DNA of 64,000 nucleotides from NCBI GenBank assembly GCA_965178125.1, contig OZ237746.1, positions 558,001-622,000 of the forward strand. Direction: 5' to 3'. The notes below the pieces were generated by a model. The model saw only the letters and a list, made by a program, of their open reading frames with translations, was not told the origin of the DNA and ran no database searches. The position numbers and the translations under genes are program-made. Positions within the stretch are counted from its first letter, which is position 1, and every line of letters starts with the position of its first letter. This DNA is from Bilabrum cf. latius. Its lineage: Eukaryota. Below, one piece after another: positions 3,101-40,225 of this stretch.

Positions 3101-5516
3101 TCCGCAGTGCAACGACACGGGTGTAGAGAACGGCTCGCACTTCACCGAGCTCGGCGGCAAGGTGTACATTGCAGGCAGGCTCAACAGCGTGACTGGGCTC
3201 GTCTCGTGCACCAGCGTGGGCACGTGCAGCGTGGTGAGTGTTGCGGGCTCGGTGTCGTCTGTCACCCACCTGACAGCGTACAACGGCCGGATCTGGTTCA
3301 TGGGAATCAGCACCACGTACGGGCGAGACTTGTTCAGCTGCGACACGCAGGACAGCTGCACGGCCCACGATCTGAACCCGTCGGGGAACGCCCGCCCGGA
3401 GAAGCTGGCCGTGGCGAACGGCAAGCTGTACATGCAGGCCCAGAGCGACGGCACCCACACGGACCTGTGGGTGTGCGGCACCGACAATCAGTGCACCGAC
3501 CTGGATCTGCGGTCCGGGTCGGAGCACGTGTACCCTAGCGACATCATCGAGTTCGGCGGCCAGGCGTGGCTCGCTGGCCAGATCGACGGGAGTGGCACCA
3601 AGCTGTTGCGGTGTGACTCGAGCGACACCTGCACTGCGGTGTCGGATGTGTCAACCACGAGTACGCTCACATCCGCAGCCAAGGTGATCTTCGGGGGCAG
3701 GCTGTACCTGTCCGGTGACGGTGACGAGCCGTGGGCCTGCGAGACGGATGGGTCCTGCAGCGAGGTGATGGACATCAACACGGGAGGCAGCTCCAGCCCC
3801 AGGTACTTCACGGTGTTCCACAACAAGATCTGGTTTGCGGCTACGGATGGCACCACCAGGACGCTGTGGTCGTGCGACGCAGACGACTCGTGCTCCGCGC
3901 ACTCGAGTGTGATCGACCCGGAGAAGCTGGTGGTGTTCGACAACAAGCTGTACATGGCCAGCGACGACGGGACGAGCGGGAAGGAGCCGTGGAGCTGCGA
4001 CGCGTCGGAGACGTGCTCGATGCTGCAGGACATCAACCCTGGCTCTGGGGACTCTGACCCGTATCTGTTTGCCGGTGCCGATAACTTGTACGTGGTCGCG
4101 GACGACAACACTCGGGGGTGGGACGTGTACACGTACGGGAGGCTGCAGCCCGCGGCGTCCTTCAGCCCGTCGCCCACCCCGTCCGCATCGCCCAGCACCA
4201 GCCCATCGCCGAGCGTGTCTGCAACGCCAACCCCTAGTCCGGTCCCCCTTGTACGGCTCTTTGGCGACTCCGTGCCTGCGGCCGACCAGTACACGGTCAC
4301 ACCCACTGCTGCGACCCAGGCCAAGCAGCTCTCCGACAACTTCTACATGCGAGCACTCGGGGCGGGCAGCTCTGTCCTGGTGTACGCCTGCGATGACGCC
4401 ACTCCCCCGCAGTGCAACGACACGGGTGTAGAGAACGGCTCGCACTTCACCGAGCTCGGCGGCAAGGTGTACATTGCAGGCAGGCTCAACAGCGTGACTG
4501 GGCTCGTCTCGTGCACCAGCGTGGGCACGTGCAGCGTGGTGAGTGTTGCGGGCTCGGTGTCGTCTGTCACCCACCTGACAGCGTACAACGGCCGGATCTG
4601 GTTCATGGGAATCAGCACCACGTACGGGCGAGACTTGTTCAGCTGCGACACGCAGGACAGCTGCACGGCCCACGATCTGAACCCGTCGGGGAACGCCCGC
4701 CCGGAGAAGCTGGCCGTGGCGAACGGCAAGCTGTACATGCAGGCCCAGAGCGACGGCACCCACACGGACCTGTGGGTGTGCGGCACCGACAATCAGTGCA
4801 CCGACCTGGATCTGCGGTCCGGGTCGGAGCACGTGTACCCTAGCGACATCATCGAGTTCGGCGGCCAGGCGTGGCTCGCTGGCCAGATCGACGGGAGTGG
4901 CACCAAGCTGTTGCGGTGTGACTCGAGCGACACCTGCACTGCGGTGTCGGATGTGTCAACCACGAGTACGCTCACATCCGCAGCCAAGGTGATCTTCGGG
5001 GGCAGGCTGTACCTGTCCGGTGACGGTGACGAGCCGTGGGCCTGCGAGACGGATGGGTCCTGCAGCGAGGTGATGGACATCAACACGGGAGGCAGCTCCA
5101 GCCCCAGGTACTTCACGGTGTTCCACAACAAGATCTGGTTTGCGGCTACGGATGGCACCACCAGGACGCTGTGGTCGTGCGACGCAGACGACTCGTGCTC
5201 CGCGCACTCGAGTGTGATCGACCCGGAGAAGCTGGTGGTGTTCGACAACAAGCTGTACATGGCCAGCGACGACGGGACGAACGGGAAGGAGCCGTGGAGC
5301 TGCGACGCGTCGGAGACGTGCTCGATGCTGCAGGACATCAACCCTGGCTCTGGGGACTCTGACCCGTATCTGTTTGCCGGTGCCGATAACTTGTACGTGG
5401 TCGCGGACGACAACACTCGGGGGTGGGACGTGTACACATACGGGAGGCTGCAGCCCGCGGCGTCCTTCAGCCCGTCGCCCACCCCGTCCGCATCGCCTGC
5501 CTCTCCCCCACTATAA
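198..5516 (+). CDS. Type II membrane-anchored surface protein with Ser/Pro/Thr stalk and three tandem Cys-rich ELWxxDGT-like beta-propeller modules
   Basis: N-terminal TM (YVLLASVAVLIVGGAVAAAAIHF). In-frame TAG 801-803 reads on as SAD-Q-LERALQ. Inferred exons 198-959, 1074-1115, 1242-1271, 1383-5516; the first two introns are in-frame and uncertain. Repeats such as GKEPWSCDASETCSMLQDINPGSGDSDP resemble ELWxxDGT repeats. Ends TAA. Confidence 0.75.
1623..5500 (+). repeat. Three near-identical 1305-bp coding tandem repeats (435 aa each)
   Basis: Units start at about 1623, 2928 and 4233 and differ by only a handful of substitutions. The ORF track repeats at a 1305-bp period. Confidence 0.95.
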
Positions 5517-5821
5517 TCTAGCACTTCTATTTCGGAGGGATGTGGATCTGTCGCCTTTTGCCTAAAGGCTAGTATAATTGGGTCTATCCAACTTGAAGAG
5601 AGCTGGATAGCCGTGTGTTTTGAAGTGCAATCCTCAGACCACCACTCGTTGGGTGTCTACGAGAAAGTTTCTGATAGAAAGTCAAATAAACCCTTCAAAA
5701 ATCAAGAAGAAGGGAGTGGTCTGATATTTTGTGGACTGAGTGCCAAGCCACTGGACTGAACTCAAAAGCGCATGCTATCACGAAGAAACATCTGGAACGA
5801 GGGCCCGGGACCTACCAGACC

Positions 5822-6146
5822 TCACGCTTCAGCTGCAATGGCCTAACTAACCACCTAAGCTCCACCCTGAGGACCCATTTCCCGCTGAGGAGCGTCAGCA
5901 TTCACGATCCCTCCGGCGCCCGCTGCCGGCCCCCGTCCTGCTGCCCGTTCTGAGCCAACCCTGCCGTTGACGTTGGCAACCGCCTCGGCGAGGTTGTTGT
6001 TTTCGGCTGCCCCTACAGCCAGGCTGGCGAAGTCCTCCTTGGCCAACCTAACGAGCGCCCGTTTGGCCTTCGCTGCAGCCCTCATCGATCCCTTCGAGAC
6101 AAAATCGAGGATCCTTGAGTGGTCCTGCATGACCCGTGAGTACATG
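5822..6146 (-). CDS. Short hypothetical ORF (TAG read-through), possibly part of a decayed element
   Basis: ORF 5855-6226 continues through two TAGs (A-Q-VVS-Q-AIAAEA) to TGA at 5822. No recognisable domain; start uncertain. Confidence 0.3.
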
Positions 6147-6197
6147 TTTTTACAACATAGTGCCAAGAACAAGGCGATGGGGATCAGGCCTGAGCAG

Positions 6198-6287
6198 GGG
6201 GGGTACGAGGCCCTCGTACCCCCCACTCGTCACACTTAGGGGTACGAAATTTGGCGGATCTCAGGTCAGACCGCCTCGTACCCCCCC
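6198..6287. repeat. Palindromic GGGGTACGAGG/CCTCGTACCCC motif cluster 1
   Basis: Perfect hairpin GGGGGGTACGAGG-C-CCTCGTACCCCCC at 6198-6224, plus a second inverted pair at 6239-6247 / 6276-6287. Confidence 0.85.
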
Positions 6288-6311
6288 ACGGTGTCGATGG
6301 AGGCAGTTGAC

Positions 6312-7017
6312 ATGGGTTCTACCCGGAAAAAGACATAGACGAAGAAGTCATTGTGCGAGAAGGTGAAGGACAGGGAAAAGCTAGCCTGGGAAACCGCTGA
6401 GCGCATGGGCTGCGCTCACGGACGCTGGGCTCCAGAATCCGGGCACTGCACCCTCAGGCTGGCGGCGCGCACCCCAAGCGGAGTGACCACCCTGAGGTCG
6501 TGGCTGGAGGGCGTGCAGCTAGACGACGGGAAACACCCGCTGCAGCTCGTGGCAGACGTTGAGGTATTCATCAAGAGCTACCGATCCTAGTACGCCGTGT
6601 GCAGGCCAAAGCTCAAGCCGAGGAGCTCGAACTGGAACGGGTGCCGGTGGCCTCTGGTGATGGAATGGGCCACAGAGGTAAAGAGCTCCAGGTCTAGGTG
6701 CGGCCACAGGAAGAACTACCCACGATACAAGACATAATTAAATGTGAGGTACATCGGTTCCATCCATCCTTCCTCAGCGGGTGAACGAGTCTTATCGGTG
6801 TGGAATGTAGTTGCCGACCAGCAACGGGTCAACCTTTTCATTCGCCAGCGGAAATTCGAGATGAGATACAGAGTAGATATATCTACTATGATGCGAGTGC
6901 TGTAGCTCCAGTTGGAGGCAGAAGGTGTCACACCGGCGGGAGAGCTCTGCGAGGAAGTCTGGGAAATCGCTTCCGAGCACCTTGCGGCATCACTCATGCC
7001 AGTTGCAGCAGACTAAG
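6312..7017 (+). pseudogene. Hypothetical ORF of about 235 codons with in-frame TAGs and one internal TAA
   Basis: ATG 6312 (MGSTRKKT-Q-TKK). The frame stays open through TAGs, has TAA at 6735-6737, then continues LNVRYIGS...PVAAD to TAA near 7015. No recognisable domain. Confidence 0.35.
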
Positions 7018-7251
7018 CTGACAGATAACTTAATTACAACTGGATTGAAGAAGATGAAGGATAATTGGTTCCCTGTATCTCGCTTGAAGATGGCCCATGA
7101 TTTTTTGAGAATATATCAGAATCCTGGGTTGCGTGACATTTTTTCGATGTCGAATTTTGCGACCGAGTTGTGTTCCATCCAACTCAGCTCGCTCTGGGGA
7201 GTCCAAAAATGCCTTCAGATCCCATATAGCACTATAGGAAGTTGGTTTTTA

Positions 7252-7318
7252 GGGGGGGTACGAGATTTGGTGATTTTTGGAGCCTCGTACCCCTCCTCGT
7301 ACCCCTCCTCGTACCCCT
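7252..7318. repeat. Palindromic motif cluster 2 with three tandem CCTCGTACCCCT 12-mers
   Basis: GGGGGGGTACGAG at 7252-7264 followed by 12-mers at 7283, 7295 and 7307. Confidence 0.85.
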
Positions 7319-7433
7319 ACCGTGCACAGGCCTGATGGGGATCTATGGTTCCGTAAAATTTTAGCGCAACTTGAAATACCAGATTTGAGATCCCCCCAAT
7401 ATTTGAGGAAAAGGAAGGAGGGGAGTACATCTT

Positions 7434-8190
7434 TTGCATTGGGAACCCACAAGTATGGCTTCGGTGAAATGCTATAGCAAGGAAAGCTGCTTGATTTACT
7501 ATTACAAACCAGCACTTGGAGATGATGGCATGGTTTCAGTTTCTATTACGGACCAAAGCGTGCGTGACGCCGGAATACAAAGACTGCTGGAACGGTTCTA
7601 TTACCTCGCCTTGAGAATGGCTAGACTTGAAGGCCTCTCCAGCGCCAAAGCCTATTGCTTGTCAGTATTGGGACTAAAAGCAGATGCTGGGACTCCTGCT
7701 AAGAATCCTGATGCTATTAAGCAGTGGAAGGCTACCGATGAAGACGCTGCAACAACGCAGCTAGAAGCTGCCGAGTCCGAAGCCCCATGCATCCGGGATT
7801 TGCGCGACCTGCTCAGGTTCGCATACTGCTGGATTTACGATCTGAACATGGGCCCGTTTGAAGGGATTCACAGCCGACTTGTCGGCATAGAAGAGCAGCT
7901 TCTCTAGATGGACGGCAGGTACTCCAAGTTCTACGCAGCCGCGAACGGAGGCCACGACGAGGCATATAGCCGTCCATCGGAGAGAGTTGATTAAGAACCC
8001 GCGGAGCAAACAAGCGCGGCATGCTAACCTGCGAAGCCCGACGCGGAGATTCCTGCAACTTGCCTGTGTGAGCAGTTGTCTCTCCGACCCAGTCACCATG
8101 GTGTTCAGTATGAGGTAGAGGTGCGGCAGGTGGCTAGCCAAGTAGTACTGTGCGGCTAGCGCAGCTACGTAGTTGACGTTGTGTCATTGC
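7434..8190 (+). pseudogene. Decayed hypothetical ORF
   Basis: 157-aa ORF continues past TAG 7905-7907 (LL-Q-MDGRYSKF), then apparently shifts frame near 7965. No recognisable domain. Confidence 0.3.
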
Positions 8191-8518
8191 TAAGAGGTGT
8201 AGCCACGGACGGGGTGCTACGACTGAAGGCAATCGGCAAGCGTAAGGCAGGTGACGACGGGGTTTCGGACGCACGGACACGGAGGCGGCGAACGAGATGA
8301 AGGCGGGTCCGGCGGTGGACGGCCACCAGCGGAGGTGGAATTTGGATCGCGGAGTACAGTTCCGGCACTCAGTCGCCACGCGTCGCGCTGAAAGACCTGA
8401 GCAGGGTCTCAATGTGCAACGCAGCTTGCGATTTTCCGGCTTCGCGTGTGTCATTTTTTAAACAAAGCTTTCTAGATTCTGCGTTCAATCAATCAACTTC
8501 TTGAAGCTCCAGATGATC

Positions 8519-11500: not shown

Positions 11501-12303
11501 CACGGGATATCCCGCCCCCTCTGCGTCATCCACGTCGGGGCCGGCACCAGCCCCTGTGGTGGCATCGCCTCCTGCCCCCGTGCCAGTGGTCGCGGCGGGT
11601 TTAGTCGCGGGCTCTTGCCCAGAGCCGAGCTCGTACCTTGGTGCCACGGTGGTTGGGATCACGAGCCTGGTGCTCTCCCCGCTGCACTGCAGGGGACTCA
11701 CCACGGTGATCTCGACCGTGGCGCTCTGGCCGGGGCCCAGGTTGCCCAGAGTGGTGGTGAACACGTCGCGGGAGGCTGCGCTCTCTTCGACTAGGGCTGC
11801 TTTGCCTCCTGCAGCGATGGCGTCTTCGTATGCGTCCTTGGCGGCTTCCTTTTCCTGGACTTCTCCGCGAACCATCCGGTCTCCAAGCTTGGCCTGCGAG
11901 ATGCACCGAACGATGGACTCTATAATAAAATAAGCAAAGTCTCATAGAACTTTTTAGTCTGGTACATCGAACGAGTGCAATCTGGCGACCGTCCAATGCG
12001 TACATGCTAGGATCCAAGCAGGAAGCATCTCGTTCTCGGTGCGGTAGCCAAGCAATTGACCAGCACTCCGAACGCAATTTCTATCGTCGCCATCATGGTG
12101 CTCACCGCAATTCCTGTTACAACACTAGATGCATCTACTGGAAACGTGTAAATGACCTCAAGAGGTTTGCTTTCCTTGTTCTCAAACGTCTGCCGAACGG
12201 TAAGCTCGCAAAGGGCCTCTCCAACCTTGCCAGTGACATCTACGGAGGTCAGTGGGAGAGGAGGGCCTCCTCCTGTAGGCAATAAACCGATTTGCTTCGC
12301 CAT
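8519..12303 (-). CDS. VIT + von Willebrand factor A domain protein (VWA5A-like)
   Basis: VIT motifs (QTFEN...YTFP, GEVQEKEAAKDAYEDAI) and MIDAS FLVDRSGSM, LMTDG. Intron 11894-12105. TAG 10037-10039 joins the 612-aa and 498-aa ORFs. Ends TGA. Confidence 0.9.
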
Positions 12304-12443
12304 GATGTTCTTTCGGTTTTTATGAGGACAGTTAATAATGAATTCTCAGGCACAATTCCGATCCACGCAATATGCACTGCAATGTAGCGCCCGTCCGGAT
12401 CCGTCGCGTTTGACGAGGGTCCAAATATCGCACTGAAAAACAG

Positions 12444-20101: not shown

Positions 20102-20406
20102 GTTGGCCCGTGGGATGCAGTGGGTGGTTGTGAGGGTTGTGGTATGGTTTGTGAAGGGGTGCGAGCGAGGGGGGGAAAGGTGCTGGGCGGCCCTTGCAAC
20201 ATCCTGTAGTAGTGACCAGGCTTGCCCCTGTGAACGTGCAGTATGGTGGCTGCTGCACTTGGGTGTGTATCTGTGCGTGGATGAATGCATGTTATTGAAA
20301 GGGTATACGCGTGGGTATCAAGAGCCTCACCCGCAGCACAGCGCACCGACAATCGTCACGCGCGGCCCAGCTCAAATTCGGGAGGTTGCAGAACAGCAGT
20401 CCAGGC

Positions 20407-25307: not shown

Positions 25308-27105
25308 ATGTCTAGGTCAAGTGGATTGCGTTTTGATGGCCGCGTCGCTATTATAACTGGGGCTGGTCGGGGCCTTGGGAGGGCGTATGCATTGCTTCTA
25401 GCATCCAAAGGCGCGTAGGTAAGCTTGGCCCAATCACTCAATCTGGGATTCTAGACCCTACAGCTACTCATTAAAAAGCCAGATATCATGGACTATGTTC
25501 TATTTGAGCGCAGGTCGTTGTAAATGATCTAGGAGGTCCTGTTGGGGGCGATGCGGGCCACGACGTTCGTGTTGCAGATCAAGTTGTTGCTGAGATCCGC
25601 AAGCTGGGCGGCCGAGCTGTAGCAGACTACAACTCCGTCACAGATGGGGAAGCCATTATAAAAACAGCGATGGATGCGTTCGGGAGAGTCGACATAGTCA
25701 TTTGCAATGCTGGCATTATCCGGGATGTCAGCTTTCACAAGATGAAGGAATCCGATTGGCAATCAGTGATGGCAGTACATTTGGAAGGGGCGTTTAAGGT
25801 AGTTAGGGCTGCTTGGAACCCGATGAGGGAGCAGCGGTACGGTCGTGTGATCTTGACGTCGTCTGCCGCTGGTCTCTACGGGAACTTTGGGCAGGTGAAT
25901 TACGCCGCCGCCAAGCTTGCACTGGTAAGATCAACTCAGTTTACTGGCCGATCCTGCTGAAATGCGCTAATGTCATTTATTATGCACTCGGTGCTACGGT
26001 CAAGACCGTTCCCCTGCGTCCCAACGCACCTCCCGCACAACCCATTTCTCATCCCGTCGCTCTGCAGGTGGGCCTTGCTCGCACTCTCGCCATCGAGGGC
26101 CAGCGGAGGGGCATCAACGTGAACGCCGTGGCCCCCGTGGCAGGCACGCGCATCACAGCCACCGTGCTCCCCGAGGACCTGCTGCAGGCTCTCAAGCCAG
26201 AGGCAGCGGCACCCGTGGTGGGCTGGCTCTGCCACGAGGACTGCGACACGACCGGGGCGGTGATCGAGACGGGGGCCGGGTGGTCTGGTGCCCTGAGGGT
26301 GGAGCGGTCTCCGGGAGCTTTCTTCTCCGATGCCGTCGGGGGCTCGCAGGCGGGAGCGGATCCCGAGTACGTGAGGCGGGAGTTCACGCCCGAGAAGGTG
26401 CTGCGGAAGTGGGGCGAGGTCATGGATTTCGGCTCCGGGTCGGCTCGATCCCCAGAGCACCCTAGCAGCAACCAGGACGCGATCATGAAGATCATGGAGC
26501 TCGTGCAGCAGCTGCCAGAGAAGCCTGCTGATGCGGCCACGGCGAGTGGTGCGAGTGCAGGCAGGGCGGATGCGAGCACCACAGTATCCTGCAGCAGCAG
26601 CAGCAGCAGCGGTGGTGACGAAGCTCACGTTGCTTCCTCAGCCTCTACTTCCTCAGCCTCTGCATCGTCAGCTGATGGTGACTCGGAGCCGTTCGAGTGG
26701 AGCGCAGCAGCAGAAGGCATGGCCTCTGCGGCTGTCTTCAAGGTGCTGCGGGGTGCCATGGCGGTGCACGGGGAGGACTTGAGGAACAAGGTGGACAGCC
26801 GGATCATGTTTCGGATCAAGCCAGACGGGAGGTGGCTCCTCGACCTCAAGAGTAGAGCGCCCCCTGCCGAGGGAACAAGCGGGCCTCACTGGCGGCTGGT
26901 GGAAGTGCCAGAGGGCAGCAAGCCCGAGGTTGATGTGGTACTGGCGGTGAAGGACGAGGACTTCATGGCCCTCGTGGCGGGCACGTCATCCCCTCAGGGC
27001 CTGTGGATGCAGGGCAAGCTCAAGGTCAAGGGCAGCCTGCAGGTGGCGGGCAGGCTGGCCCCAGTGTTCAAGGCCGCAAAGAAGTTCAGCACGGCCAAAC
27101 TCTGA
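25308..27105 (+). CDS. Peroxisomal 3-hydroxyacyl-CoA dehydrogenase SDR + SCP2 (MFE-2/DHS-28-like, no hydratase domain)
   Basis: [48 protein letters not shown]-terminal SCP2 and PTS1 AKL. TAG 25416-25418 is the last codon of exon 1. Introns 25419-25513 and 25925-26067. Confidence 0.9.
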
Positions 27106-27166
27106 GTGTCTCCTTGATTTAAGGTTAACTTAGCCTTATTTTGGCACTTCCAGCACTACTCCATAA

Positions 27167-30100
27167 CCGGCGCCGTGAAAGGTCCGCCATTATTGGCATT
27201 CCGAGTCCCAAAATCGCGACCATCGTGCCTTTAGGCTCCCATTGCTGAGAACTGGACCAATTTCTTGGGTGAATTTACATTGCAAAAATATCTTATGTAA
27301 CATTTAAATGTAATGCAGTCCCAACGGAGCCATGCAATTCGCAGCATTAGACTGAAAACGAGTCGTGCTTGCGACCACCATTTTTGGCGACCACCCCCAG
27401 CCCAAGATTTTACTCGCTGGCAAGGGGTGCCAGATGCACGCACCGTGTGCCGCCAAAAAAGCTTTTATTTGGTTTCTGTTGGTATTTAGTAGTTAAAAAC
27501 ATATTTGACAACATGTTATCAGGTCACTAGGCTCATTCATTAGCAATCCAGCGAAATTTGGCTGCCATTCCAACACACGTCGGTTCAAACGGTTCCAAAA
27601 TTTGCAGGGCATTTATACCTTAGCGCAATAGACTTTTAACACACTGGCACTACTGTTGAGGTAAACGGGTATTAAATACAATATCATGTGGAGGATTACG
27701 TCTACGTTTGCGAGAACAACGAGTGGGAGGCGATAAAGTCGCTCCAGCGGCGCGTCCGAAGTTGGGTCTCGGGGTGCAAGTGCCCCTGGTGGGAGTGCCT
27801 CGTCTCGGCGTCACGAGCAGAAATCCGCCAAACTCAGGATCATCGATCAAAGTGAGTACGGTATTGTTATGGTTGGTGGAATTGCATGGGCTCTAGCCGG
27901 CTAGTTTCGGGGTACCGTACAATCTGCCGCAGAGGCACCGGAAGCCACGAATGTGGCACTCATTGACAGTATCCATGCATCCGTGGTATGCTTGACGAGG
28001 TGTTGGTTGAATAATCATTTCATGGTGATGTGGACGAGCTTAAATAATTCTACAGAGGTATAATAGGGCCACAATCGGGCTTGCGTCCTGTGCAAAATTG
28101 GCCATGCACGGTGTTGCTGCAAGGCCACTGATATCAGCCTTCATCGCTTATTTGTGCTTAGCCTTCGCAGAAGCATCTCAGTCAATCCCAAAATTCTCAT
28201 TGGAGTCTTGTAAACCTATATCTAGCGTTTCGGTTGCTAGCAAGTAGTCAGGAAGCAGCCCGTCCCATGCGGCCAGTTCGAGCCGACGCGCTGGGTTCAA
28301 GCGTAAACGGCAAGAGGACAATGCAAATAAATCGACAAAAGATGATGATTTACGTGATTTGTTGGGCGAAGCATAGGCCAGCGATGATGATATGGACTAT
28401 GTCGGCGATTCAGACGAGGACGAGCAGGTATCCAGTCGGTCTGCAACTTTGAGCCGGCCTCAAGTGCAGCATCGTAGGAGGCAGTAGGCTCACCAAGCAA
28501 AGCGGCGCAGAATAGAGCAATATGAAAGTATGTTTCCTATGGACAAAATTGCATCGTTGGTTGACGAGCCTGAATATAGGTACTTCGTGAATGACCGGGT
28601 TGTGATTGGCGGTGATGGGATCCCGATCGCTCGCACAGCGGCTACTTATGTGGCTGCTACTGAGTATGTCAAAGGCTGGATGACGGCTCATCATGAACAA
28701 CCAATATCTCCAATACGCATTCTGTGCTCGCTGGTGCCTCTCGATATTGCATTTCCGTGGCGAGGCACTGCAGCGGCAGAGGTAGCTGGCCAGGCAGCCG
28801 GCCAGCCGGCAGCGACCAACCAATGGACATGCCAGTTGCGATGATGTTCCTGGCCGTGGCATTGACTCTGTCTCTCATCCGACCCCGGATACCTTTAGAA
28901 TAACTGCAATCAAAGTAGTTCCTGGTGCGCATGAAAGACGATATCGTAGTGCAAGACTGGAATCGGTTCCATCGAAACTTGTCTTTCGCCGGGAGGTTGC
29001 AGGAGGCTCCGGCACCCCTGCTGGCGGAGGAGCGCGCCACAATGAGGCTAGGGAGTGTGGGCAGTCCTCGCGAGCGGGTACTCATAGAATATCTATCAGG
29101 CATGCTAGATACAGTTTCAGAGTACTTTCGTGCGGCTACTTCGAGCCCAAAGAGCATCGCCGTTGATGAGATGATGGTGATGGCGAACGGCCGAAATCGG
29201 GCATGTGTCATCATGCCGAACAAGCCCACATCGCATGGCTTTAAGCTATGGGCAGCTGCACGAAAAGACGGGTATGGGTACCATTTGGATCTAGCAACAT
29301 CTGTTGCCGATGATACACGATAGTACAGGGGGAAGGCTGAGTACTCGTATAAGGTAGCAACCGGTAGCGGTGCCGCTGCCGGGTAGCTGACCCGGATGGA
29401 CCTGCAAACAGCAGCTGTTGCGTCAAAGGCAATGGACAAAAACTTGAATGGGGGCCTTCTAGCGGTGGATAACTACTTTAAATCGGCTCCACTGTGTGAT
29501 TGGGCCACCAGCAAAGGCCTTCGGGTTGTTGGCACGCTTCGCCAAGGCAAAGTGAGCGGTGAGCTGTACCACGCGATTGGCAAGCTGAACAGACGAACCC
29601 CAGGCGAACGCGGGCAGGCTGTGAAGCGCGCTCCTCCTGGGTCCAGCAAAGTCTCTTCATGTCATGTAATAGCTGATGATGTTTTTGATGCGAGTGAGCT
29701 TCCTGCGGGATCGCTGCTGGCCGAAGAGGACCTTGGCAGTCGGGGCCTGTTGAGCCCTGGCCAGACAGTAGCCTTTGACTCGCCAGTTGATTCAGCTTCT
29801 GGGATGCAAGTTTTTGGATACTGTGCCCGCGCACCATTTCTTATGGCTTCTAACATTCCTACGAAGTACTTTGTTCGGTTGGTAAAGAAGCTACGGAAAG
29901 ATGGTGGCGAACTGAGTGTGGTGAACGCGCCCCTCGTGTCCGTCCTCTACAACAAGTACATGGGGGGTGTGCATCTAGCTGACAAGTTCCGGACGCAACT
30001 TTCGCTAACAAATGCATTCCAGGGAGAGAATAGGGCATACTTAAGAGTGTGGGAAGGTTTAATGGAGCAAGTTATCGTCAATACGTACATCATCTGGGTC

Positions 30101-31062
30101 AACTTGGAGGCACGTCGACTGCTACGCCACGGACCCAGTCGTCGGCAAGCTGCTGGAGCTAGCAACGAATCCGTTCAGGAACAGGTTTAGCACATGGTGC
30201 TGCATCGACAAGCTCATGTTATGTTTGTGCAGCTGTTGTATGACGAATTGATGCGTCCTTACCGACATGCACGTGCAGGAACTCGCGGTGCTGCAACCTC
30301 AGCTGGGATGCGTGCGGAGGCGACCCCCGGGAACCTTGGATGTAGAAAGCAGCACACGGTAGCTACGCTGCTGGGCTCGCTCCATTTGATTGGAAAGGAG
30401 TAGTTACAAGCAGGACTGATTAAATTTCTCAGTAGCGGACGATCAAAGAACCGTCGAGTGGGGTGCAGCGCCAAGTGCAAGGACTCCAGATGCAGCAAGC
30501 GGCAGCATCATTAGTCAGTTTCTTCCTATAAAGTGTGTTCACGCTGCTGCAAGTTCATTTGTGGGGATTGTAAAGAATCTATGTATCATCTGTAAACAGG
30601 ATTTGGCTGTGATGTGGATATAGTTGATATTAATGCCAAGTAAGTGGATGCGCAAGAATCGGGTCACGAAGCACGTCATTCATGGCAGGTCCACATTCGA
30701 TTCAATATCTTGTAAACCGTTCGGTAACTTTTTTGCGCTAAGACTTATATATAATATAACTACCAATTAATTCAAAAAAGCTTGTTTATTTCTCAAGCAT
30801 GCCTGCTTGGACAAACTTCTGCAGTATCAAAGTAGCCCTTCCTGAAAATCGAGCGTATGGTTTCATGACCACCAAGTATACTATTCTCGCAAGCTCATCA
30901 ATGAGTAACTCTCGCAATCGATAGTTAACTTATACAATTTTCAATATTTTGATATTATTTTAGGATTACTTGAATGGTACGCGAGAATCGGTAAGGTGAA
31001 CTCATGGTACCGATATCGGCGATACCGGTCGGTCGGCCAAATCCGACCTTTCACGGCGCCGG
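27167..31062 (+). mobile_element. piggyBac-like DNA transposon (3.9 kb), degenerate
   Basis: 18-bp TIRs CCGGCGCCGTGAAAGGTC at 27167-27184 and 31045-31062, flanked by the 4-bp direct repeat ATAA (27163-27166, 31063-31066). Contains a piggyBac transposase. Confidence 0.9.
28234..30595 (+). pseudogene. piggyBac-family DDE transposase with C-terminal Cys-rich domain
   Basis: SIAVDEMM, NKPTSHGFKLW, AVDNYF, VVGTLR, YNKYMGGV(H)LAD and CxxC motifs. About 8 in-frame TAGs. Frameshift near 28750, internal TAA at 28901, terminal TAA 30593-30595. 5' end uncertain. Confidence 0.85.
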
Positions 31063-31081
31063 ATAAGTAAATAAATTTTGT

Positions 31082-32821
31082 TCAGTTGATGCCAAGCGTC
31101 GTTCCATCCAGGACCTACGAGGGTAGCTTCTCCCCACCTCCGGCTCTCCCAGCAGAGGCAGCCTTGCCACCTTCCAGCCCATCATGATCCGATCCCGTCT
31201 TCCCTTCCGCTCTCTCGTCCAGCGCCAGCCGACGCAGGCTCTGGCTCGTCCCCAGAGTCATCAGCCCGCACGCCACCGTCGCGGCCGGCAACAGCCCGTT
31301 CAGCACCGCCGGCTCTTTGGCCAAGATGCCCGTCAGGCCCACCAGCTGCATCAGCAGCGTGCCGGCGTTGAATATCACCTGGATCAACCCGTTCGACACG
31401 CTCTCAGGCACCGGGTGCGTCAGCTCGGCCACCAGCTCCACAGCCGCGGGCGTCACCGCGCTCAGAAAGAAAGACCCCACGCTCGCCAGAGCTACCACAG
31501 CCGCGTGCGTGCCGGGCACAACCTCGAACACGATCAGCGCGAACACCACGAACGCAACAGAGCTCAAAAAGAAAAACAACAGCATCGTGAAGCGGTACGA
31601 CCGCGTCCAGTCCAGCCACGGACCTACCAACAGACCGCCCATGCAGCCCGTGATCGTAGACAGAAACCCGAGCCAAGCCACCGAGTGCGCCAGGCTCCCG
31701 GCCCCGTGCACAGCCGCGCTCTGGTCGAAATGCCAGGGGGCACCCCCAAGCAGCACGCCAAGCAGCGACGTCCACGCCGAGTAGAAACCCGTTGAAATAC
31801 CCATGGCAAGCGCGATCAGCAGGAAATTCCTACGCGACAGCAGCACCCACCACAGCCGCAGCACCTGGCACGCGTCCAGCCGAGACGAGCTCTGGCCCGC
31901 AATGATGGCCTCGGCCTCGGCCGTGTCTAGCGCCGCTTGCCGCCCTGCCTCAGTGGGGGGCTCAGCTGCTCCTACAGTACCGATGGGCGCTCCCCCATTC
32001 AGCGATGGCAGCATGTCTCCGTCGCCTGCCGCTCGCTTCTCGTCCACTGATGCAACGAGCAACCCTGCTTCCAGCCCGTCTGCAGGCAGCAGTGCAGCCC
32101 CCATACCGCCGTCGTAGGACTTGCCTATTTTTGCATCATCCAGCGCCCCCTTACCTCCACCACCCGTCTCCGCCTGCTCGCCCCGCAGGTCTCTTGCCAC
32201 CGCTCGAGCCTCGGCATCGGCTGCAAGAGCAGCCGCGGCGGAGGGAGGGGTAGGCGGGCCTTCGGGAAAATAAACGAGCAGCAACAGTCCTGCAGCAGCC
32301 TATACACCGCTAATAATCTAGAGCATTCTTTCAATAGACAGCTGATTCGTCAAAAATGGCACGAGTAAGAACCCGACAGCCGATCCAACGGAGTTAGCAA
32401 TGAGAGAGATTGCCGTAGCAGTAGCGCGCTCGCCGGATGGAAACCAAGCAAGCGCTAGCTACGGCGGCGGCGTTAGGACCAGCGGTCCACCGAGCCCATT
32501 GATTGCATGTGCAACGTGAATCATCCAGACCTGACTTGGCTCGTGCACGAATGCGCGCAGCAGCGCACAGGCAACCATGCAGGCAGCTAGGGATATCGCT
32601 ACGAAGCGAAGACCGCGACCACTTGCAAGGAAAACCCCTGGGAAAAAGAAAATTGGTCCATAGGCTGCAATGATATCAACATCATTAGCAGTGAGTCCCA
32701 GCTCGGACTTTGCAGCGTCAGGAATCACTCCAAACGTCAGCCACACTGTACACTGTATCGTGCTAAGGAGTGAAAACAACAACAAAACATACCAGCGCTA
32801 CCAGTACACAGTATACTTCAT
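31082..32821 (-). CDS. MFS transporter, FLVCR/SLC49-like (copy 2, inverted paralog)
   Basis: Colinear with copy 1. TAGs near 32798 and at 32459, 32318, 32300, 31115. Ends TGA at 31082. Start could be 32863. Confidence 0.85.
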
Positions 32822-32966
32822 ACTCGCCGTGCTATACGTCACTTTTTCCAACAGCAACTGCATTACTGGCTATTGTAAGGTGTACGTTAAATAGGCGCTT
32901 GCTCGGTTTCGATGCAAGCAGTATAACTTCAACAGTGATTAAAGTAAATTATTTCAACGGCCAAAT

Positions 32967-34542
32967 ATGGCGGATGACCAGCGAGATGTAGCCAAAGACG
33001 ATGCTGAGCAGCAGGGATCATAGGCGCCTGCCCCAGCATCCGGGGCGGGAATGAGCGATGGCGCTCAGCCGATGGACCAGGATGAGCTGCTGGAAGGGTC
33101 AGAACTGGAAGAATTGAGGTCTCTTAGTGCCGATGAAATTAAACGACGAACCAGAGATATGAAGAGGTAGCTGAACGTGGTGAAGAGTAACTTGAAAAGT
33201 GCGATGGTGGCGACCAAGAAAGAAGAAAAAATGGCCCACGACGCCCGAGAAAGATTCAAGCTGAACGTGCAGCTGCCATTTCTTGTTGCAAACATTGTAG
33301 AGGTAAGCTTTGTCGGTTCATATTGCAGAATTCGCTCGTTTCGAGGGCAATATGAAGGTGCCACGGCTCGCGATTCGAAGCGTGGTCATTGCACGATTAC
33401 GAAATGGGGCGCACCGACCGCCCCCAGCCATTGCATCGAAGAATATACTGATCTTGTAAATTTTTTCCCCGTGCACGCGCGTGCAGGTGCTCGATCTTCC
33501 GGAAGAGAGCAAAGAGGAGGATGAGGACGCTACGATGCAGTCTGCCGAGGACCAGCTCAAGGGCAAGGCCGTCGTGGTCAAGACTACCACTCGCCAGACC
33601 GTTTTCTTGCCAACAGTAGGTCTTGTTCCCGCCAAGGAACTCACTCCCGGCGACATGGTAGGCGTGAACAAGGACTCGTACGTCATTCTGGAGAAGCTGC
33701 CGGCCGAGTACGACACCAGGGTGAAGGCCATGGAGCTTGACGAAAAACCCACAGAGGACTACGCCGACATTGGCGGGCTTTCCAAGCAGATCTAGGAGCT
33801 TGTGGAGGCCGTGGAGCTCCCCATGAAGCAGGCAGACCGCTTCAAGACCATCGGGATCCAACCGCCCAAGGGGGTGCTCATGTACGGCCCCCCCGGGACC
33901 GGCAAGACACTGCTGGCTAGGGCATGCGCGAAGAACACGGACGCCGTGTTCCTCAAGCTGGCGGGGCCCTCGTTGGTGCAGATGTACATCGGTGACGGGG
34001 CCAAGATCGTGCGTGACGCCTTCGAGCTGGCCAAGGAGAAGTGCAAGGAGAGGAGCGGAGCCATCATCTTCATCGACGAGATTGACGCGGTGGGCTCCAA
34101 GCGGTCGGGGGGGGACGAAACGGGGGACAACGAGGTGCAGCGCACGATGCTGGAGCTGCTGAACCAGCTGGATGGGTTTTCCTCAGACACGAGGATCAAG
34201 GTCATCGCAGCCACCAACCGCCCCGATATCCTGGACCCCGCCCTCATGCGGTCCGGCCGGCTGGACCGCAAGATCGAGCTGCCGCACCCCACCGAGGCCG
34301 CCCGCGCGGAGATCCTGCAGATCCACAGCCGCAAGATGAACGTGAACAAGGACGAGGTGAACTTCAGGGAGCTGGCCAGGTCCACGGAGGACTTCAACGG
34401 GGCCATGCTCAAGGCAGTGTGCGTGGAGGCGGGCATGATCGCGCTGCGGAGGGGGGCGGCCGTGATGGAGCACGAGGACTTCGTGGAGGGCATCCAGGCC
34501 GTGCAGATGAAGAAGAAGAAGAGCCTGCAGTACTACGCGTGA
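32967..34542 (+). CDS. PSMC3: 26S proteasome regulatory ATPase subunit 6A (Rpt5)
   Basis: [32 protein letters not shown]-[TAG]-[25 protein letters not shown]-terminal LQYYA. TAGs at 33021, 33168, 33793. Intron 33303-33486. Confidence 0.97.
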
Positions 34543-34835
34543 GCGGCCGCGGAGTACTCCGCATGGATGGAGCTTGGGCTGTGAGGCTGATGGGGTATCA
34601 CGCAGTGGGGCGAGTGGAAGTGCTGAAACACAATGAGCTGGCAGTGGATGATCACAATTCCAATTCTGATCCAAGCAAACGAAATCAACTCTAGCTCAAT
34701 GGCGCTGGCTAGCCGTTGCATGCAGCTGTCACATGCGAGTCGTTGGCATTGCACTCGTCACGCCACGATTACTGAACCGATCTTGACGAATCTAGTACAA
34801 CGGTCCTCAAGCTGGCATACAGGGGGCCTCCTCAC

Positions 34836-35419
34836 TCAACCCATCCCATCGTCCATGGGCACTGCTGGCCCCCCTGTCGCCATGCCACCGGATCCACCAC
34901 GGCCAGCGAGCATCGCCCCGGTGCCACCGCGAGCTTGCCCCAGAGCGCCCTGCCTCCCGCGCCCCACCAGCCGCTGCCTCGCCGAGGGACCGACTGCTCC
35001 AGGGGACCGAGTGGCGCCCTGCCTGGGAGAGTGAGAGCCCCACGGGCTGAAGCTGCGCGAAGGTGCACTGCCTTGCGCTGCCCGCAGGCCCAACCCCCCG
35101 TCGGGTGCTGCATTACCCTCCACAGCGCCATGAAGGAGATCCGCCAGCTCGCCCAGCACAGAGCCGAGCGTTGCGGTGCAGTGCCACCGCTGCAGGCAGG
35201 GCAGCCGCACCACCCTTGCCCCGGGGTGCACGGCGCCCAGAAACTCCTTGAAGCGCAGAGAGCGCAGGCCGGACTGCTCCTCGCCCATGACGGGCTGCCT
35301 GGCAAACCCTAAAGCCCCACCCATGGCTGCGGGTCCAGTGCCAGTGCCATTGCCAGTCCCACCAACCCCCCACATCTGCGCGCTGAACGCGTCGCTGGCT
35401 TGCCTGCCCCATTTCATCC

Positions 35420-35456
<37 letters not shown>

Positions 35457-36977
35457 ATCTTCATCTTCATCGTCGTCCTCGTCATCCGCAGCCATCCCGT
35501 CATCATGCTCATCTGCATATGCCCCATCCCCATCCCACTCCCCCTTGGCTTCGGCCTCGCGGCCGTCCTGGCTCGCCGCCCCCATGGAATGCATCGACTG
35601 GCCCGAGGCGCGACTGATGCTCAGGCGAGAAGTGGGTGCACCATCCTGCCCCTGGCCACTGGCACTGGCACTTGCAGCGCTCCCGAAGAAGCCTGGACGG
35701 GGCATGGCACCATCCTACCGTGCCGCCAGACCTGATGCTGCGTCTGCCCCCATGGACACCTGGCCGATGGGTGCACTGCCTTGCGGTAGCCACCCTGGGA
35801 CAGCCCCCCCAACGCCCTAAATTTGAGCCTGGGCCTCCATTACTGTGGTCGTTGCCGGCGCTGATCGAATGCAAGCGCTGTGACCATCTGTGGAGCCAGG
35901 CCATCCCTCCACCGGGCCCGTGGAGGAAGAGGAGGACGAGGAGGAGGAGGACGATCGAGGGGGCTGGACCACTGACGCGGACCATAAGCCCCCGTCCTCC
36001 ATGGGTGACGCACCTGCCATCGCTGCAGAGCCGGCGGCCCGGGGGGGAGCAGACCGGGGCATGCGGTGCTGTGCATGTGCAGAGGGTGCCGAGTGCTGTG
36101 CATGTGCAGAGGGTGCCGAGCACCCGGTGTCTGAGGCGGAGGCAGTGGATTCGGAACCAGCAACGGACAGGGGAGCCTCGCTGGAGCAGCCTCCATCGAT
36201 CGTGTCGCTGCTGGACCCGCGCTGTAGCCTTGGGTTCTGCTCCTTCCATGTCTCTGGTCGCATGCTCGCAACTGCTCGCACGCCCGGTCGAGCCGCGTGC
36301 TGCCTTCGAATGGCAGCCCTCCCAGCCGCTCTATCCCTCGGTGATTGCTACAATATGGTAAGTTGAGGCTGTGTCATGGCTGCAGCAGTGCCACGCTTTC
36401 CCTCCCTCCTTGAAAACGTCGCCTTGAGCTCGTCCTCGGTTGGCGCGGTGCACATCGGAATCCAATTTCTGGCCGAACCGAGCAAATCACCGGAGACATC
36501 GATCAGGACCGGGGGTTTATGCGGATAATACCTTCCAATATGAATAACTACTGCTCGCTGGCATGGATCCATACCCGTATACACCTTGGCTGGGTCCACA
36601 TACACTAGAATGCGGAGGTCATCGAGACGCTACACCTCGACAACTGCGCCTTGCTTGGTTGTAGCAAGCTCTTCGAGGTCTGCGATTATGAAATAGCAAT
36701 GTTCAGCTGCTTTAACGGCTGCAGGGCAATTGTGTGTGCTTCAGCTGAAGTGGACCTGGACATCGGACTACTGATAAGCAACTGAGATCCGCTGCTTCTG
36801 GAACAAAAGCGAAATCAGCGTCTTACCGTGTTTTAGTCTCAATTGTCCGGATGAGCTCAGCGCTTTCCGTCGCTTCTCCGCCCTTGGATGGCAATGTGCC
36901 TGGTCATCCTCGTTGCTGCTTCGTGCTCGCTTTCTGCCTCGACGGATCCCTGGGCTTGCAGCGAAATGAACTTCCAT
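34836..36977 (-). CDS. UBC-fold (Ubc12-like) protein interrupted by a large low-complexity insertion; probably catalytically inactive
   Basis: SSGQLRLKHDLEEL, YYPHKPP, and a distal VRLPCLQRWHCTATLGSVLGELADLL. Intron 36680-36826. TAGs at 36630, 36348, 35817, 35715. Confidence 0.55.
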
Positions 36978-37256
36978 AATTGGGTGGAGACTCTTAATTT
37001 ATGAGGATGAGAAAAGGCACAGCAACGTACGGGGAGTTTGTGCCTGTTCTAATGCGCCTTGTTGGGTGCGCGAAAATGCCGGTCACTTCAATCGTCACCG
37101 CCGCCGGCGATCCATGGCCCACGCTGCCAGCGGCTTTCGTCAGCATACCCTTTAAGTGTGGACACATCGAGATTGCGCCGTCCAAACGTATCCCTTATTC
37201 AATCACATTCCAAGTTCAAGCGACCGAAAACTGAATCTGCCCCCCGATTAGGATGC

Positions 37257-38513
37257 TCAGCGCCACGACGGCACGATGGGATCGGGGTACTGGTACGTCT
37301 TCTCTCCCAGCTGGGCGGGCCCCTCAGCCGGCTGCTTCAGCATCACGTCCAAGTTCGTTGTCTCCGCAGCTGTGAGCGGCTTCGGGGGAGTCCCGTTGTC
37401 GCACTGCAGCATGCTCTTGTACTCGTCTCCAAACAGAGGGCTCACTCCGCTCCTCGTGTTGCACTGCACTGACCTGCCCAGGCTCACGATGTGGTGGTAC
37501 CAGAATGACGGCACGTACAGGATGTCCCCCGCCCTTACGATCACTTCCACGCTCTCTGCCCTCTGCAGCTGCCCTGCGACCTCCTTGCTCTCTTCCGGTT
37601 TAGAGAGATCCAGGGCGGTGTGCCTGCGGGAGGGCCCCTCGTGCATGATGCCCAGGTAGGGGCAGGCAGAGGGGGGATTCAAGATGTACCTCTTGGCGCC
37701 CCTGAGCATGGCGATGAAATTGAGGTGCCCGTCCTCGTGGCACTCGGCGATGATGCCGCGCATGCCGAACCTGCAGTGCATGCCCCGCATGTCGCTGTTG
37801 TCCACCACGAAGAGAGACCCCTGGTTCTTGCTCCTCCAGATGTCAATGTCCTTGCCTATGACTGTGGGCCCGCCGTCGTACGAGTCCCCTGTGGTGAGGT
37901 AGAGGTGCTCGTAGTCCTCTCTCTCGGCCAGAGAGTGCGTCTCCTCCAGGGCGCGCGTCTGGTTCCAAAACTCGGCGAGGGTCATGCGCACGGGGACGGG
38001 GGGAGGGTGCGGGGCTGTATATCCCTTGGCACGGAAAGCTCCCTGGGCTTCCTTCTCGGAGGCGTACCCGCCCTTTGGACGCTTGCCGCGGTTCACCTCG
38101 CGTCGCATGAACTTGGCCTGGTAGTACATGAAGTGATTGTTGTGCGAGCGGTGGACCTCAAACTTCTTGTCTGGACCGCCAAGACCATTAATAAGGTATT
38201 CATCGTCTTTCCACTTGCTGACGACCTGATTTATGTTGGGTACGTTGTGCACTATGAACGGGATCTCGAGACGCCGCAGGTACTCCGCCCGCTCCTTATC
38301 TGCCGGCTTCTGATAGTCTAAATGCTCCAGCGAATCGAAAACGCCCTGCTTTGGGATCGTTACATCATCCGTCGGCCAATTGCGTAGGATTGAGAGCATT
38401 GGAAACATCTTCGGCATATTCTTGCGGCGTTCATCGGTGTACTCCTGACGTCTGTACAGCCCAGCAGTCGCAATCACAGCCACACTTGCTAGTAAAACGC
38501 ATAATGATCTCAT
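37257..38513 (-). CDS. JmjC/cupin-like (Cupin_8) 2-oxoglutarate oxygenase with signal peptide
   Basis: ECHEDGHLNF (HxD), GAKRYIL, AGDILYVPSFWYHHI. Hydrophobic N-terminus from ATG 38513. Confidence 0.8.
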   Translation of the reverse strand: MRSLCVLLASVAVIATAGLYRRQEYTDERRKNMPKMFPMLSILRNWPTDDVTIPKQGVFDSLEHLDYQKPADKERAEYLRRLEIPFIVHNVPNINQVVSKWKDDEYLINGLGGPDKKFEVHRSHNNHFMYYQAKFMRREVNRGKRPKGGYASEKEAQGAFRAKGYTAPHPPPVPVRMTLAEFWNQTRALEETHSLAEREDYEHLYLTTGDSYDGGPTVIGKDIDIWRSKNQGSLFVVDNSDMRGMHCRFGMRGIIAECHEDGHLNFIAMLRGAKRYILNPPSACPYLGIMHEGPSRRHTALDLSKPEESKEVAGQLQRAESVEVIVRAGDILYVPSFWYHHIVSLGRSVQCNTRSGVSPLFGDEYKSMLQCDNGTPPKPLTAAETTNLDVMLKQPAEGPAQLGEKTYQYPDPIVPSWR

Positions 38514-38725
38514 GGGTCCGAACGATGTTAGGCCTGGGAGGGCACGAATGGACTCTTGATGGTCCCGCGATCCGTCATCAGTAGGTTCCGCAAGGTAGAC
38601 AGAAGAATGCGCGGCGCCAAGATGCACTGCACTCTAGGATCAAAATCACGTGGCAAACTGCACCCGGTTCATTCGTTTGAAGGCTTGGTCAGGTTGTCTA
38701 GGTAATTTTGACCAGATATTGAACT

Positions 38726-40225
38726 ATGGCATCAGTTGCCGGATCGGTTGCAGCGAGCTCCGCGTCTGGAGAGCGAGATGAATCGGGATGGAGGATTGAA
38801 GAGTCTGTGACGGCCAAGCGCACCAACAACCCCATTCGGAAAATCGTGGACGGTATTAAGATGCCTAAGGATGATGGATCCAAACCGATCATTCCCCTGT
38901 CCTTGGGTGAGGCAGCCTGTTTGGCCGAATGTAGACATGTCCCGAAGGGAACTCTGAGAAGATGCACGAGGCTACTCTCGACCGTCGTGCTTTAAGTTGG
39001 CACTTGGACGAGCAAGTCGTTCTGTTTGATGTATATGCACGATTGTGATCGCATCTTATGCCTGCTACGACTCAACATTTCGCTAATATGCCTTCTGGCC
39101 GCAGGTGATCCGACTGTATTCGGCAACTTCAAAACCCCTGAGTTCTTCGTCAAGACGATCGAGGAGAACCTCAAGTCTTACAAGCACAACGGATACGTCC
39201 ACTCGGCTGGCACACCTGCTGCCCGAAAAGCAGTGGCCGAGCGATTCTCTAGCCCAGGTGCAGAGATCACTGCTGAGGACGTCGTCATCGCTTGCGGCTG
39301 CTCGGGCGCTCTGGACCTGGCCATAACCGCCCTTTGCAACGCCGGGGAGACACTGCTTGTGCCCAGACCGGGCTTCGCGCTATATCAAACGCTTGCAGAG
39401 AGCAAGGGCATCTGCGTCGAGTACTACGACCTTGACTCGACAAAGAGCTGGGAGGTGGACCTGGCGAGCCTGGAGGCGGCCATCAAGAAGAGCAAGGGGC
39501 CAGCAGCCATCCTCGTCAACAACCCGAGCAACCCCTGCGGCTCGGTGTACTCGAAGGAGCACCTGAAGGCCATCATCGCCGTGGCGGAGGCAGCCCGGCT
39601 GCCCATCATCGCTGACGAGATCTACCGGAACATGGTGTTCAGCACGGCCAAGTTCGTGCCCATCGCCGGCCTTTCAAGCGAGGTGCCAGTCCTTTCCGTT
39701 GGCGGTATTGCAAAGGAGTTTCTCGTACCAGGATGGAGAGTTGGCTGGGTGCTTGTCCACGACAAGAAGGGGCGCTTTGAAAAGGTGCGAGCTGGGCTTT
39801 ACCGGCTCAGCTAGCTCATCATTGGATCGTGTTCTCTCATTCAGTCAGCTCTTCCAGAGTTGCTGTCCCCTACCACAGAAGAGCATAAAGTGGCACTCGC
39901 AGACTTCACTGCGAGCACCATCAAGTAGCTAGAAGACAACGCTTCCTTTACAACTGAAAGGCTTACTGGCCTGGAGGGCGTTGAGGTTATTGTTCCACAA
40001 GGCGCCATGTACGTGATGATTGGAATTGACTCTTCGAAATTCAAGGACATCGCCGACGACATGGAGTTCACTCAGAAGCTGCTCGATGAAGAGCACGTGT
40101 TTATGTTGCCCGGGTCCTGCTTCGGCATGAAGGGGTTTGCACGTATCGTTTTCTCAGCGCCGAAAGACAAACTAAGCGATGCATACGACAGAATCGAGCG
40201 ATTCTGCAAAGCTCATGCAAAGTAA
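38726..40225 (+). CDS. TAT: Tyrosine aminotransferase (class I PLP)
   Basis: IPLSLGDPT, NNPSNPCGSVY, ADEIY, GGIAKEFLVPGWRVGW, RLS-[TAG]-LIIG, PQGAMY. TAGs at 39812 and 39926. Intron 38907-39104. Ends TAA. Confidence 0.93.

Follow-up and report, generated by a model that had tools for sequence, protein, structure and literature searches.

A GC-rich eukaryote, probably a stramenopile, in which UAG is best read as glutamine while UAA appears to remain a stop

We examined how the triplets TAG, TAA and TGA are used in a 64-kb stretch of DNA, hereafter called the window (the whole stretch that was analysed, with positions counted from its first letter), which has a GC content of about 60% and carries in-frame TAG in many of its genes. 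The window is eukaryotic nuclear DNA with spliceosomal introns; comparison of spliced contigs with the window gave GT..AG introns of 161-198 nt. By Pfam matches, its genes encode a three-unit repeat protein, a VIT/VWA protein, a DUF2961 protein, a GH2 glycosidase, PP1, a cytochrome-b5 desaturase, two MFS paralogues, an SDR/SCP2 protein, a piggyBac-like transposase, the proteasome ATPase Rpt5, a JmjC/cupin protein, a tyrosine aminotransferase (TAT), an NADPH oxidase (NOX), a Kelch/BTB protein, an NADPH-cytochrome P450 reductase (CPR), a DnaJ protein and Gar1. Several open reading frames (ORFs) of the window matched no Pfam family.

To set the limits of the coding sequences (CDS), we used start methionines, the ends of homologues, the extent of Pfam matches and spliced contigs. 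This gave 21 segments with 14,214 codons, of which 17 segments with 10,870 codons, supported by Pfam matches, homologues or transcript contigs, form a high-confidence subset. Composition changes along the CDS from 5' to 3', the GC content at third codon positions (GC3) rising from 0.67 over the first fifth to 0.77-0.80 beyond. Contigs from four public runs were mapped onto positions 27000-46999. Those of X6, X7 and X8 skip the introns at 33301-33484, 38906-39103 and 45062-45222 and therefore represent spliced RNA; it is the splicing that reveals their RNA nature, the run type itself being only guessed, and the fourth run, X5, is a DNA run. Two parts lacked cover in the spliced runs, 40340-41673 and, with values near zero, the transposase region 27667-31001. 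A metagenome scan using TAT returned three loci (L001, L002 and L003) from 48 pattern matches. The TAT proteins of L001 and L002 are 80% identical to that of the window, and the 11.6 kb of L002 run collinear with window positions 31-43 kb, in the order MFS, Rpt5, an unnamed gene, JmjC, TAT and NOX. L003, a Cafeteria-like metagenome contig, has a GC content of 0.72, and long ORFs in all six frames mask its code. The genes and sites on which the analysis draws are the following:

1374-5516, plus strand: gene 1, a repeat protein of three 435-aa units, read from its translation; no TAG; TAA stop at 5514-5516.
23410-25110, plus strand: MFS paralogue 1 (MFS1); TAG at 23431, 23698 and 23770; stop TGA; Pfam MFS_1.
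28904-30595, plus strand: piggyBac-like transposase ORF; six in-frame TAG; TAA at 30593-30595; partial Pfam match to DDE_Tnp_1_7 (E 3.1e-10).
31082-32821, minus strand: MFS paralogue 2 (MFS2); first bases of TAG at 32800, 32461, 32320, 32302 and 31117; stop TGA; Pfam MFS_1.
32967-34542, plus strand: Rpt5 (26S proteasome ATPase) CDS, exons 32967-33300 and 33485-34542; Pfam AAA and Prot_ATP_ID_OB_C.
33021, 33168 and 33793, plus strand: in-frame TAG of Rpt5; its TGA stop is at 34540-34542.
33301-33484, plus strand: Rpt5 intron, GT..AG; skipped by contigs of X6, X7 and X8 with 0 other letters.
33793-33795, plus strand: Rpt5 TAG in the motif KQI-TAG-ELVE; has a homologue column and is CAG in L002.
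37257-38513, minus strand: JmjC/cupin-8 protein; TGA stop at 37257-37259; Pfam Cupin_8.
38726-40225, plus strand: TAT CDS, exons 38726-38905 and 39104-40225; Pfam Aminotran_1_2 (E 5.6e-70); stop TAA.
38906-39103, plus strand: TAT intron, GT..AG; skipped by contigs of X7 and X8 with 0 other letters.
39812-39814, plus strand: TAT TAG in the motif RLS-TAG-LI; has a homologue column, is CAG in L002, and the public protein P0005 ends here.
39926-39928, plus strand: second TAG of TAT; has a homologue column and is CAG in L002.
40223-40225, plus strand: TAA terminator of TAT, after ...ERFCKAHAK, at the C-terminus of the homologues; TAA also in L001 and L002.
40226-41809, no strand: AT-rich spacer separating the convergent genes TAT and NOX; GC 0.416 (40001-42000) and 0.30 (200 nt past the TAA).
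41810-44206, minus strand: NOX (NADPH oxidase/ferric reductase); TAG at 42437-42439; stop TGA; Pfam Ferric_reduct, FAD_binding_8 and NAD_binding_6.
44903-49144, plus strand: Kelch/BTB protein in three exons; 12 in-frame TAG; stop TGA; Pfam Kelch families.
44863-45061, 45223-45373 and 45525-46999: contig pieces over Kelch/BTB; the GT..AG intron 45062-45222 is skipped.
52855-55194, minus strand: CPR (NADPH-cytochrome P450 reductase); TAG at 52915-52917; stop TGA; Pfam Flavodoxin_1, FAD_binding_1 and NAD_binding_1.

Counting codons in frame across the complete CDS set revealed 52 TAG, 91 CAA and 470 CAG, and neither TAA nor TGA, and the high-confidence subset gave 38 TAG, 53 CAA, 342 CAG and no TAA. 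Of the 21 segments, 15 contain TAG, with Rpt5, TAT and CPR among them. The first fifth of the CDS holds 20 of the 52 TAG and 32 of the 91 CAA, but 86 of the 470 CAG. All 19 TAG codons within 27000-46999 (five in MFS2, three in Rpt5, four in the unnamed gene, two in TAT, one in NOX and four in Kelch) are covered by contig pieces with no other letters, among them an X6 contig that spans 31090-32816 of MFS2 and contigs of X6, X7 and X8 over the NOX codon. Because TAG is unchanged in spliced contigs, these codons are neither intronic nor edited. Public protein predictions break off at the same triplets: P0005, a standard-code call of a 98% identical TAT, stops exactly before TAG 39812, P0368 (99% identical MFS) stops before the TAG at query residue 120, and P0362 and P0412 stop before TAGs of the relative. 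In CPR, TAG lies 20 codons upstream of the TGA, and the ensuing 20 residues align through the end of P0241 (94% identical); since this tail is conserved, TAG is read through near the end of the mRNA. No gene ends in TAG, neither among the 22 host genes with a placeable 3' end in the window nor among the six genes of L002. UAG is a sense codon: its pattern of codon usage is observed directly, as are TAG in spliced transcripts and the same pattern in the relative.

Comparison with homologues suggests that UAG is best read as glutamine. At position 39812 of TAT, 100 of 119 homologues carry Q (13 carry T and none E); the second TAT column at 39926 has Q in 46, T in 37 and E in 8 of 119, and the Rpt5 column at 33793 has Q in 74, N in 26 and E in 13 of 120. 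When log-odds were summed over 12 usable columns, Q came first (1.81 vs -4.88 for T), as it did over four columns from TAT, Rpt5 and CPR (Q 9.63, T -0.24, E -0.77), and L and S were absent from the eight best-scoring residues. At three sites, one MFS paralogue has TAG where the other has glutamine encoded by CAG or CAA; TAG 23698 of MFS1 stands opposite Q both in paralogue 2 and in L002, and the MFS2 TAGs at 32461, 32320 and 32302 correspond to CAG, CAA and CAG in L002. Altogether, 22 codon pairs between the window and L002 have TAG on one side, and the partner is CAG or CAA in eight, TAG in one, GAG or GAA in three, AAG in three and another codon in seven, the last mostly in poorly aligned low-complexity parts. 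The Kelch gene contains two TAG (45920 and 45938) in a poly-Gln run and five (47267-47293) in a TAG-GGN repeat. Columns of MFS, drawn from 136 distant homologues of 30-40% identity, are too variable to name the residue, with a Q plurality in one (48/132).

Inside the same CDS, 59 TAA, 131 TAG and 448 TGA triplets occur off frame, so that TAA is not missing from the coding sequence as such. If TAA related to TAG as CAA does to CAG, the complete set should contain 10.1 in-frame TAA (P of zero 4e-5) and the high-confidence set 5.9 (P of zero 0.003), and a position-stratified expectation, by arithmetic on the counts per fifth of the CDS, is about 12; none was observed in either set. The 22 host genes end in TGA (20) or TAA (2). 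At the TAA of TAT, 10 of 10 aligned full-length homologues end 0-9 residues away, and TAA occupies the same codon in L001 and L002. Composition changes at this point, with GC dropping from 0.49 in the 300 nt before to 0.32 in the 300 nt after and GC3 from 0.62 to 0.31, and downstream in the same frame there are TAG at +10 and TAA at +22, +41 and +51, with no TGA through 110 codons. Around the TAA of gene 1, GC3 goes from 0.82 over the final 80 codons of the gene to 0.42 over the following 80, and the next in-frame TGA lies 80 codons beyond. Transcript contigs end at 40252 (X8) and 40298 (X7), 27 and 73 nt beyond the TAA of TAT, where a DNA contig continues to 40515; comparable tails of 34-99 nt follow the TGA stops of Rpt5, JmjC and NOX. 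We take these contig ends as a weak hint of termination at the TAA. The TAA of the transposase carries less weight, as this ORF has a partial Pfam match and may be decaying.

The relative repeats this pattern. In 2,758 in-frame codons of L002, we counted 12 TAG, 21 CAA, 59 CAG and no TAA, where 4.3 TAA would be expected (P of zero 0.014), and its six genes stop at TGA (4) or TAA (2). The JmjC gene stops at the same residue in both, with TGA in the window (...SWR TGA) and TAA in L002 (...HWR TAA). In addition, the TAG in the motif YW-TAG-RWY (MFS2 32800) is found in all three MFS copies, i.e., in both window paralogues and in L002; being common to window and relative, it indicates that TAG was already sense in their common ancestor, and the code change would be older than the split from a relative with about 80% TAT identity. 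These codon counts and the TAT and JmjC gene ends support a role of UAA as terminator and thereby an uncoupling of UAA and UAG, as had been proposed in the initial annotation, which was made from the sequence alone. Its underlying observations, too, were confirmed on the CDS set: the lack of in-frame TAA in host CDS, the abundance of TAG and CAA in the AT-richer 5' regions, the end of TAT at ERFCKAHAK and TAA in a homologous position with AT-rich DNA beyond, the TAA ends of gene 1 and the transposase, and the 20 genes ending in TGA.

A search with TAT, in which 2,967 of 8,000 scored candidates fell below E 0.001, gave Cafeteria roenbergensis as the best named match (65%, P0003), followed by oomycetes at about 55%. 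Named matches among the best 120 for Rpt5 were chiefly ochrophytes and oomycetes, next apicomplexans, and those for CPR were oomycetes and brown algae at about 40%. In a TAT tree of 42 rows, the window grouped with its relative (SH-aLRT 100) and, within a 10-row clade, with the Cafeteria group (SH-aLRT 89); this clade adjoins one with oomycetes. An affinity with aphelids was dropped because the best matches are stramenopiles and not fungal relatives. With moderate confidence, we therefore suggest from these comparisons that the organism is a stramenopile belonging to neither the oomycetes nor the ochrophytes. Judged by TAT, its closest named counterpart is the bicosoecid stramenopile Cafeteria roenbergensis, 0.91 substitutions per site away. 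The Cafeteria genome is also GC-rich; the TAT of Cafeteria is annotated at full length in NCBI, and we know of no code change in this species. The earlier view that the window does not look ciliate-like thus agrees with its GC content, its introns of 161-198 nt and stramenopile best named matches for three of three genes. That the organism could not be identified holds in part, placement at supergroup level being possible.

Together, we read the window as DNA of a GC-rich eukaryote, likely a stramenopile that is neither oomycete nor ochrophyte, in which UAG encodes glutamine, UGA is the main stop and UAA a minor stop; we put the probability of this reading at roughly 0.85. The code would be of the type that we take to be NCBI table 15, the 'Blepharisma nuclear code'. 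A number of points weigh against it. The ORFs were initially listed with TAA as a stop, so that the zero for in-frame TAA is partly built in; it still counts because the CDS limits were later fixed independently of that listing. Confidence is lower for four CDS segments (3,344 codons) that match no family, and the sample is small, with the 64-kb window and 11.6 kb from the relative. Just two host genes, TAT and gene 1, end in TAA, with homologue and transcript support for TAT only, and contigs cannot prove a poly(A) site. The placement is based on searches with three single genes and on two quick trees, and the second of these trees, an Rpt5 tree of 35 rows, left the window among nameless rows: this tree, which the initial annotation had proposed for placing the organism, does set it apart from the oomycete-ochrophyte clade and from apicomplexans but joins it to no named group. 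As for the residue, the CPR column has E in 55 and Q in 23 of 120 homologues, with E in the 94% identical P0241, six of the TAG partners in the window/L002 pairs are the GAG/GAA and AAG codons noted above, and the YW-TAG-RWY column is uninformative, with R in 59 of 125 residues (136 rows, 11 gaps).

The CPR column and the GAG/GAA and AAG partners would suit a UAG that encodes a residue other than glutamine, e.g., glutamate or lysine. We consider this quite unlikely, given that the most conserved column, that of TAT at 39812, is dominated by Q and has no E at all, that Q leads the summed log-odds by 6.7 in the set of 12 columns and by about 10 in the set of four, and that CAG/CAA is the commonest partner of TAG, which also sits within a poly-Gln run. 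Moreover, GAG and AAG are each one base from TAG, and E and K are common substitutes of Q. UAG might also be ambiguous, i.e., sense inside genes and a context-dependent stop elsewhere, as in codes of the Condylostoma or Blastocrithidia type. About 28 sampled gene ends are too few against a rare use of this kind, and in MFS2 a TAG stands 11 codons ahead of the TGA, within a tail missing from the paralogue. However, not one of these 28 ends (22 in the window, six in L002) is TAG, and in CPR a TAG 20 codons before the stop is read through into a conserved C-terminal tail, leaving only a small chance for such ambiguity.

A coupled, ciliate-type code, in which UAA and UAG both mean glutamine, UGA is the sole stop and TAA is simply too rare in a GC-rich stretch of 64 kb to be caught in frame, draws on two facts: on the plus strand, TAA is less frequent (263) than TAG (450) and TGA (815), and TGA ends 20 of the 22 host genes. 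Yet 6-12 in-frame TAA would then be expected in the window, besides the 4.3 in L002, and none was found. In two species, TAA lies at the conserved C-terminus of TAT, and in L002 it stands in place of TGA at the end of JmjC; furthermore, the codon-position structure of GC stops at TAA, and past that of TAT an in-frame TGA is lacking within 110 codons. We regard this explanation as very improbable. Least credible, to the point of being negligible, is the idea that the TAGs are pseudogene lesions, assembly errors, or edited or spliced out under a standard code. Nothing was found that supports it, and it is contradicted by the spread of TAG over most CDS segments including Rpt5, TAT and CPR, by the 19 of 19 TAG codons that are intact in contigs of independent runs, some of them spliced, and by the relative, which has TAGs at other sites and one at a shared site.

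For a code with UAG as glutamine and UAA as a stop, the likeliest machinery would be a tRNA-Gln whose anticodon, CUA, differs by a single base from the normal CUG; by ordinary pairing, this tRNA would read UAG and not UAA. Its partner would probably be an eRF1 that is no longer efficient on UAG while keeping recognition of UAA and UGA, which would remove the competition at UAG. A CUA tRNA combined with such an altered eRF1 would explain the uncoupling of UAA and UAG. ARAGORN found no tRNA in the window, L001 or L002 and one tRNA-Thr in L003, and Rfam at the gathering threshold gave no matches in the window, whose genes do not include eRF1.

Use of UAG alone for glutamine has been described for Iotanema spirale (Fornicata), Protocruzia tuzeti and two phyllopharyngean ciliate lineages (PMC11687900, PMC5304391), consistent with the earlier statement that it is known from few lineages such as Iotanema and some ciliates. 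These organisms share with the window UAG as glutamine and UAA and UGA as remaining terminators; the window differs in its GC content of about 60%, its GT..AG introns and its stramenopile best matches. In the ciliate cases, UAA ends 86.9-98.3% of genes, and this heavy use of UAA is offered as the reason why UAA cannot follow UAG (PMC11687900). Here, in contrast, UGA is the main stop (20/22) and UAA is rare (2/22). Since UAA ends so few genes and still is not sense, the argument from heavy UAA use would not explain the present case.

Coupled use of UAA and UAG for glutamine, the table 6 type of code, is listed for many ciliates, ulvophycean green algae, Hexamita, Streblomastix and Amoeboaphelidium (PMC11687900, PMC5304391). 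Those codes likewise read a stop codon as glutamine, with TAG exchanging with CAG and CAA; UAA is also sense there, whereas here no in-frame TAA was seen where 6-12 were expected and TAA ends conserved genes. Other uncoupled codes are the rhizarian exLh with UAG as leucine, Scotinosphaera with UAG as serine, and a ciliate with UAA as lysine and UAG as glutamate (PMC11687900, PMC10553269). The meanings of UAG and UAA are likewise split in all of them, and the residue in the present case is best read as glutamine. In Iotanema and the rhizarian, eRF1 is altered at the position corresponding to human Thr32 or Leu69 (PMC5304391).

The code thus belongs to a type described before, in what looks like a new lineage. 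Full-text literature searches, which did not cover most subscription journals, returned no report of a nuclear code change in a stramenopile. In keeping with this, the earlier suggestion of an independent, undescribed origin is plausible, and it is not proven. We see about even odds that the window documents the first nuclear code change in stramenopiles, an independent origin of UAG as glutamine with UAA and UGA still stops, shared by a small clade. That clade would comprise the organism of the window, the relative with a 94% identical CPR and the relative with an 80% identical TAT. If this is true, the change arose in a GC-rich genome with UGA as the main stop, and UAA remained a stop even though few genes need it. 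The uncoupling would then have been set by the decoding machinery, that is, by the CUA tRNA and the specificity of eRF1, rather than by the penalty of lengthening most proteins. UAA and UAG nearly always change together, and each independent split tests ideas on code evolution. In practical terms, gene callers using the standard code cut the proteins of this organism at every TAG, as in the public fragments P0005, P0368, P0362 and P0412, and the genome, the transcriptomes and the metagenome bins of the relatives need annotation with TAG as glutamine.

Several further observations concern the genes named above. The repeat in gene 1 has a period of 1305 nt, with near-identical units and Ser/Pro-rich linkers, and Pfam gave only weak matches (SSL_N, SP2); Tandem Repeats Finder misses it because its longest period is 500. 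An upstream ORF at 93-1280, which has a start methionine and a hydrophobic stretch, may be a candidate first exon of gene 1. The two MFS paralogues are borne by an inverted duplication of 1685 nt (23422-25106 vs 31125-32809, 89% complementary), their 3' halves being near-identical in protein and their 5' parts divergent. Between the arms lie the SDR/SCP2 gene and the transposase ORF at 28904-30595, of which a second, diverged copy (36 differences in 1099 nt) occurs in the public DNA run X5. The spacer at 40226-41809 is 1.6 kb long, and its GC of 0.30-0.42 is far under the 60% of the window.

Regarding the source of the DNA, half or more of the words sampled from 33000-42000 were found in each of eight runs under four different organism labels, and one DNA run matches the window with no differences across 8.3 kb. 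The source organism may share mixed cultures with other labelled organisms. The region 5700-8500 has a lower GC (0.53) and holds two ORFs (5889-6737 and 7407-7994) without a family match, both ending in TAA and of doubtful coding status. Lastly, an ORF of 994 codons at 20299-23283, also without a Pfam family, contains a GHSLGAG motif (lipase-like GxSxG) and sits in a stretch of strong G-over-C skew, up to 0.26.

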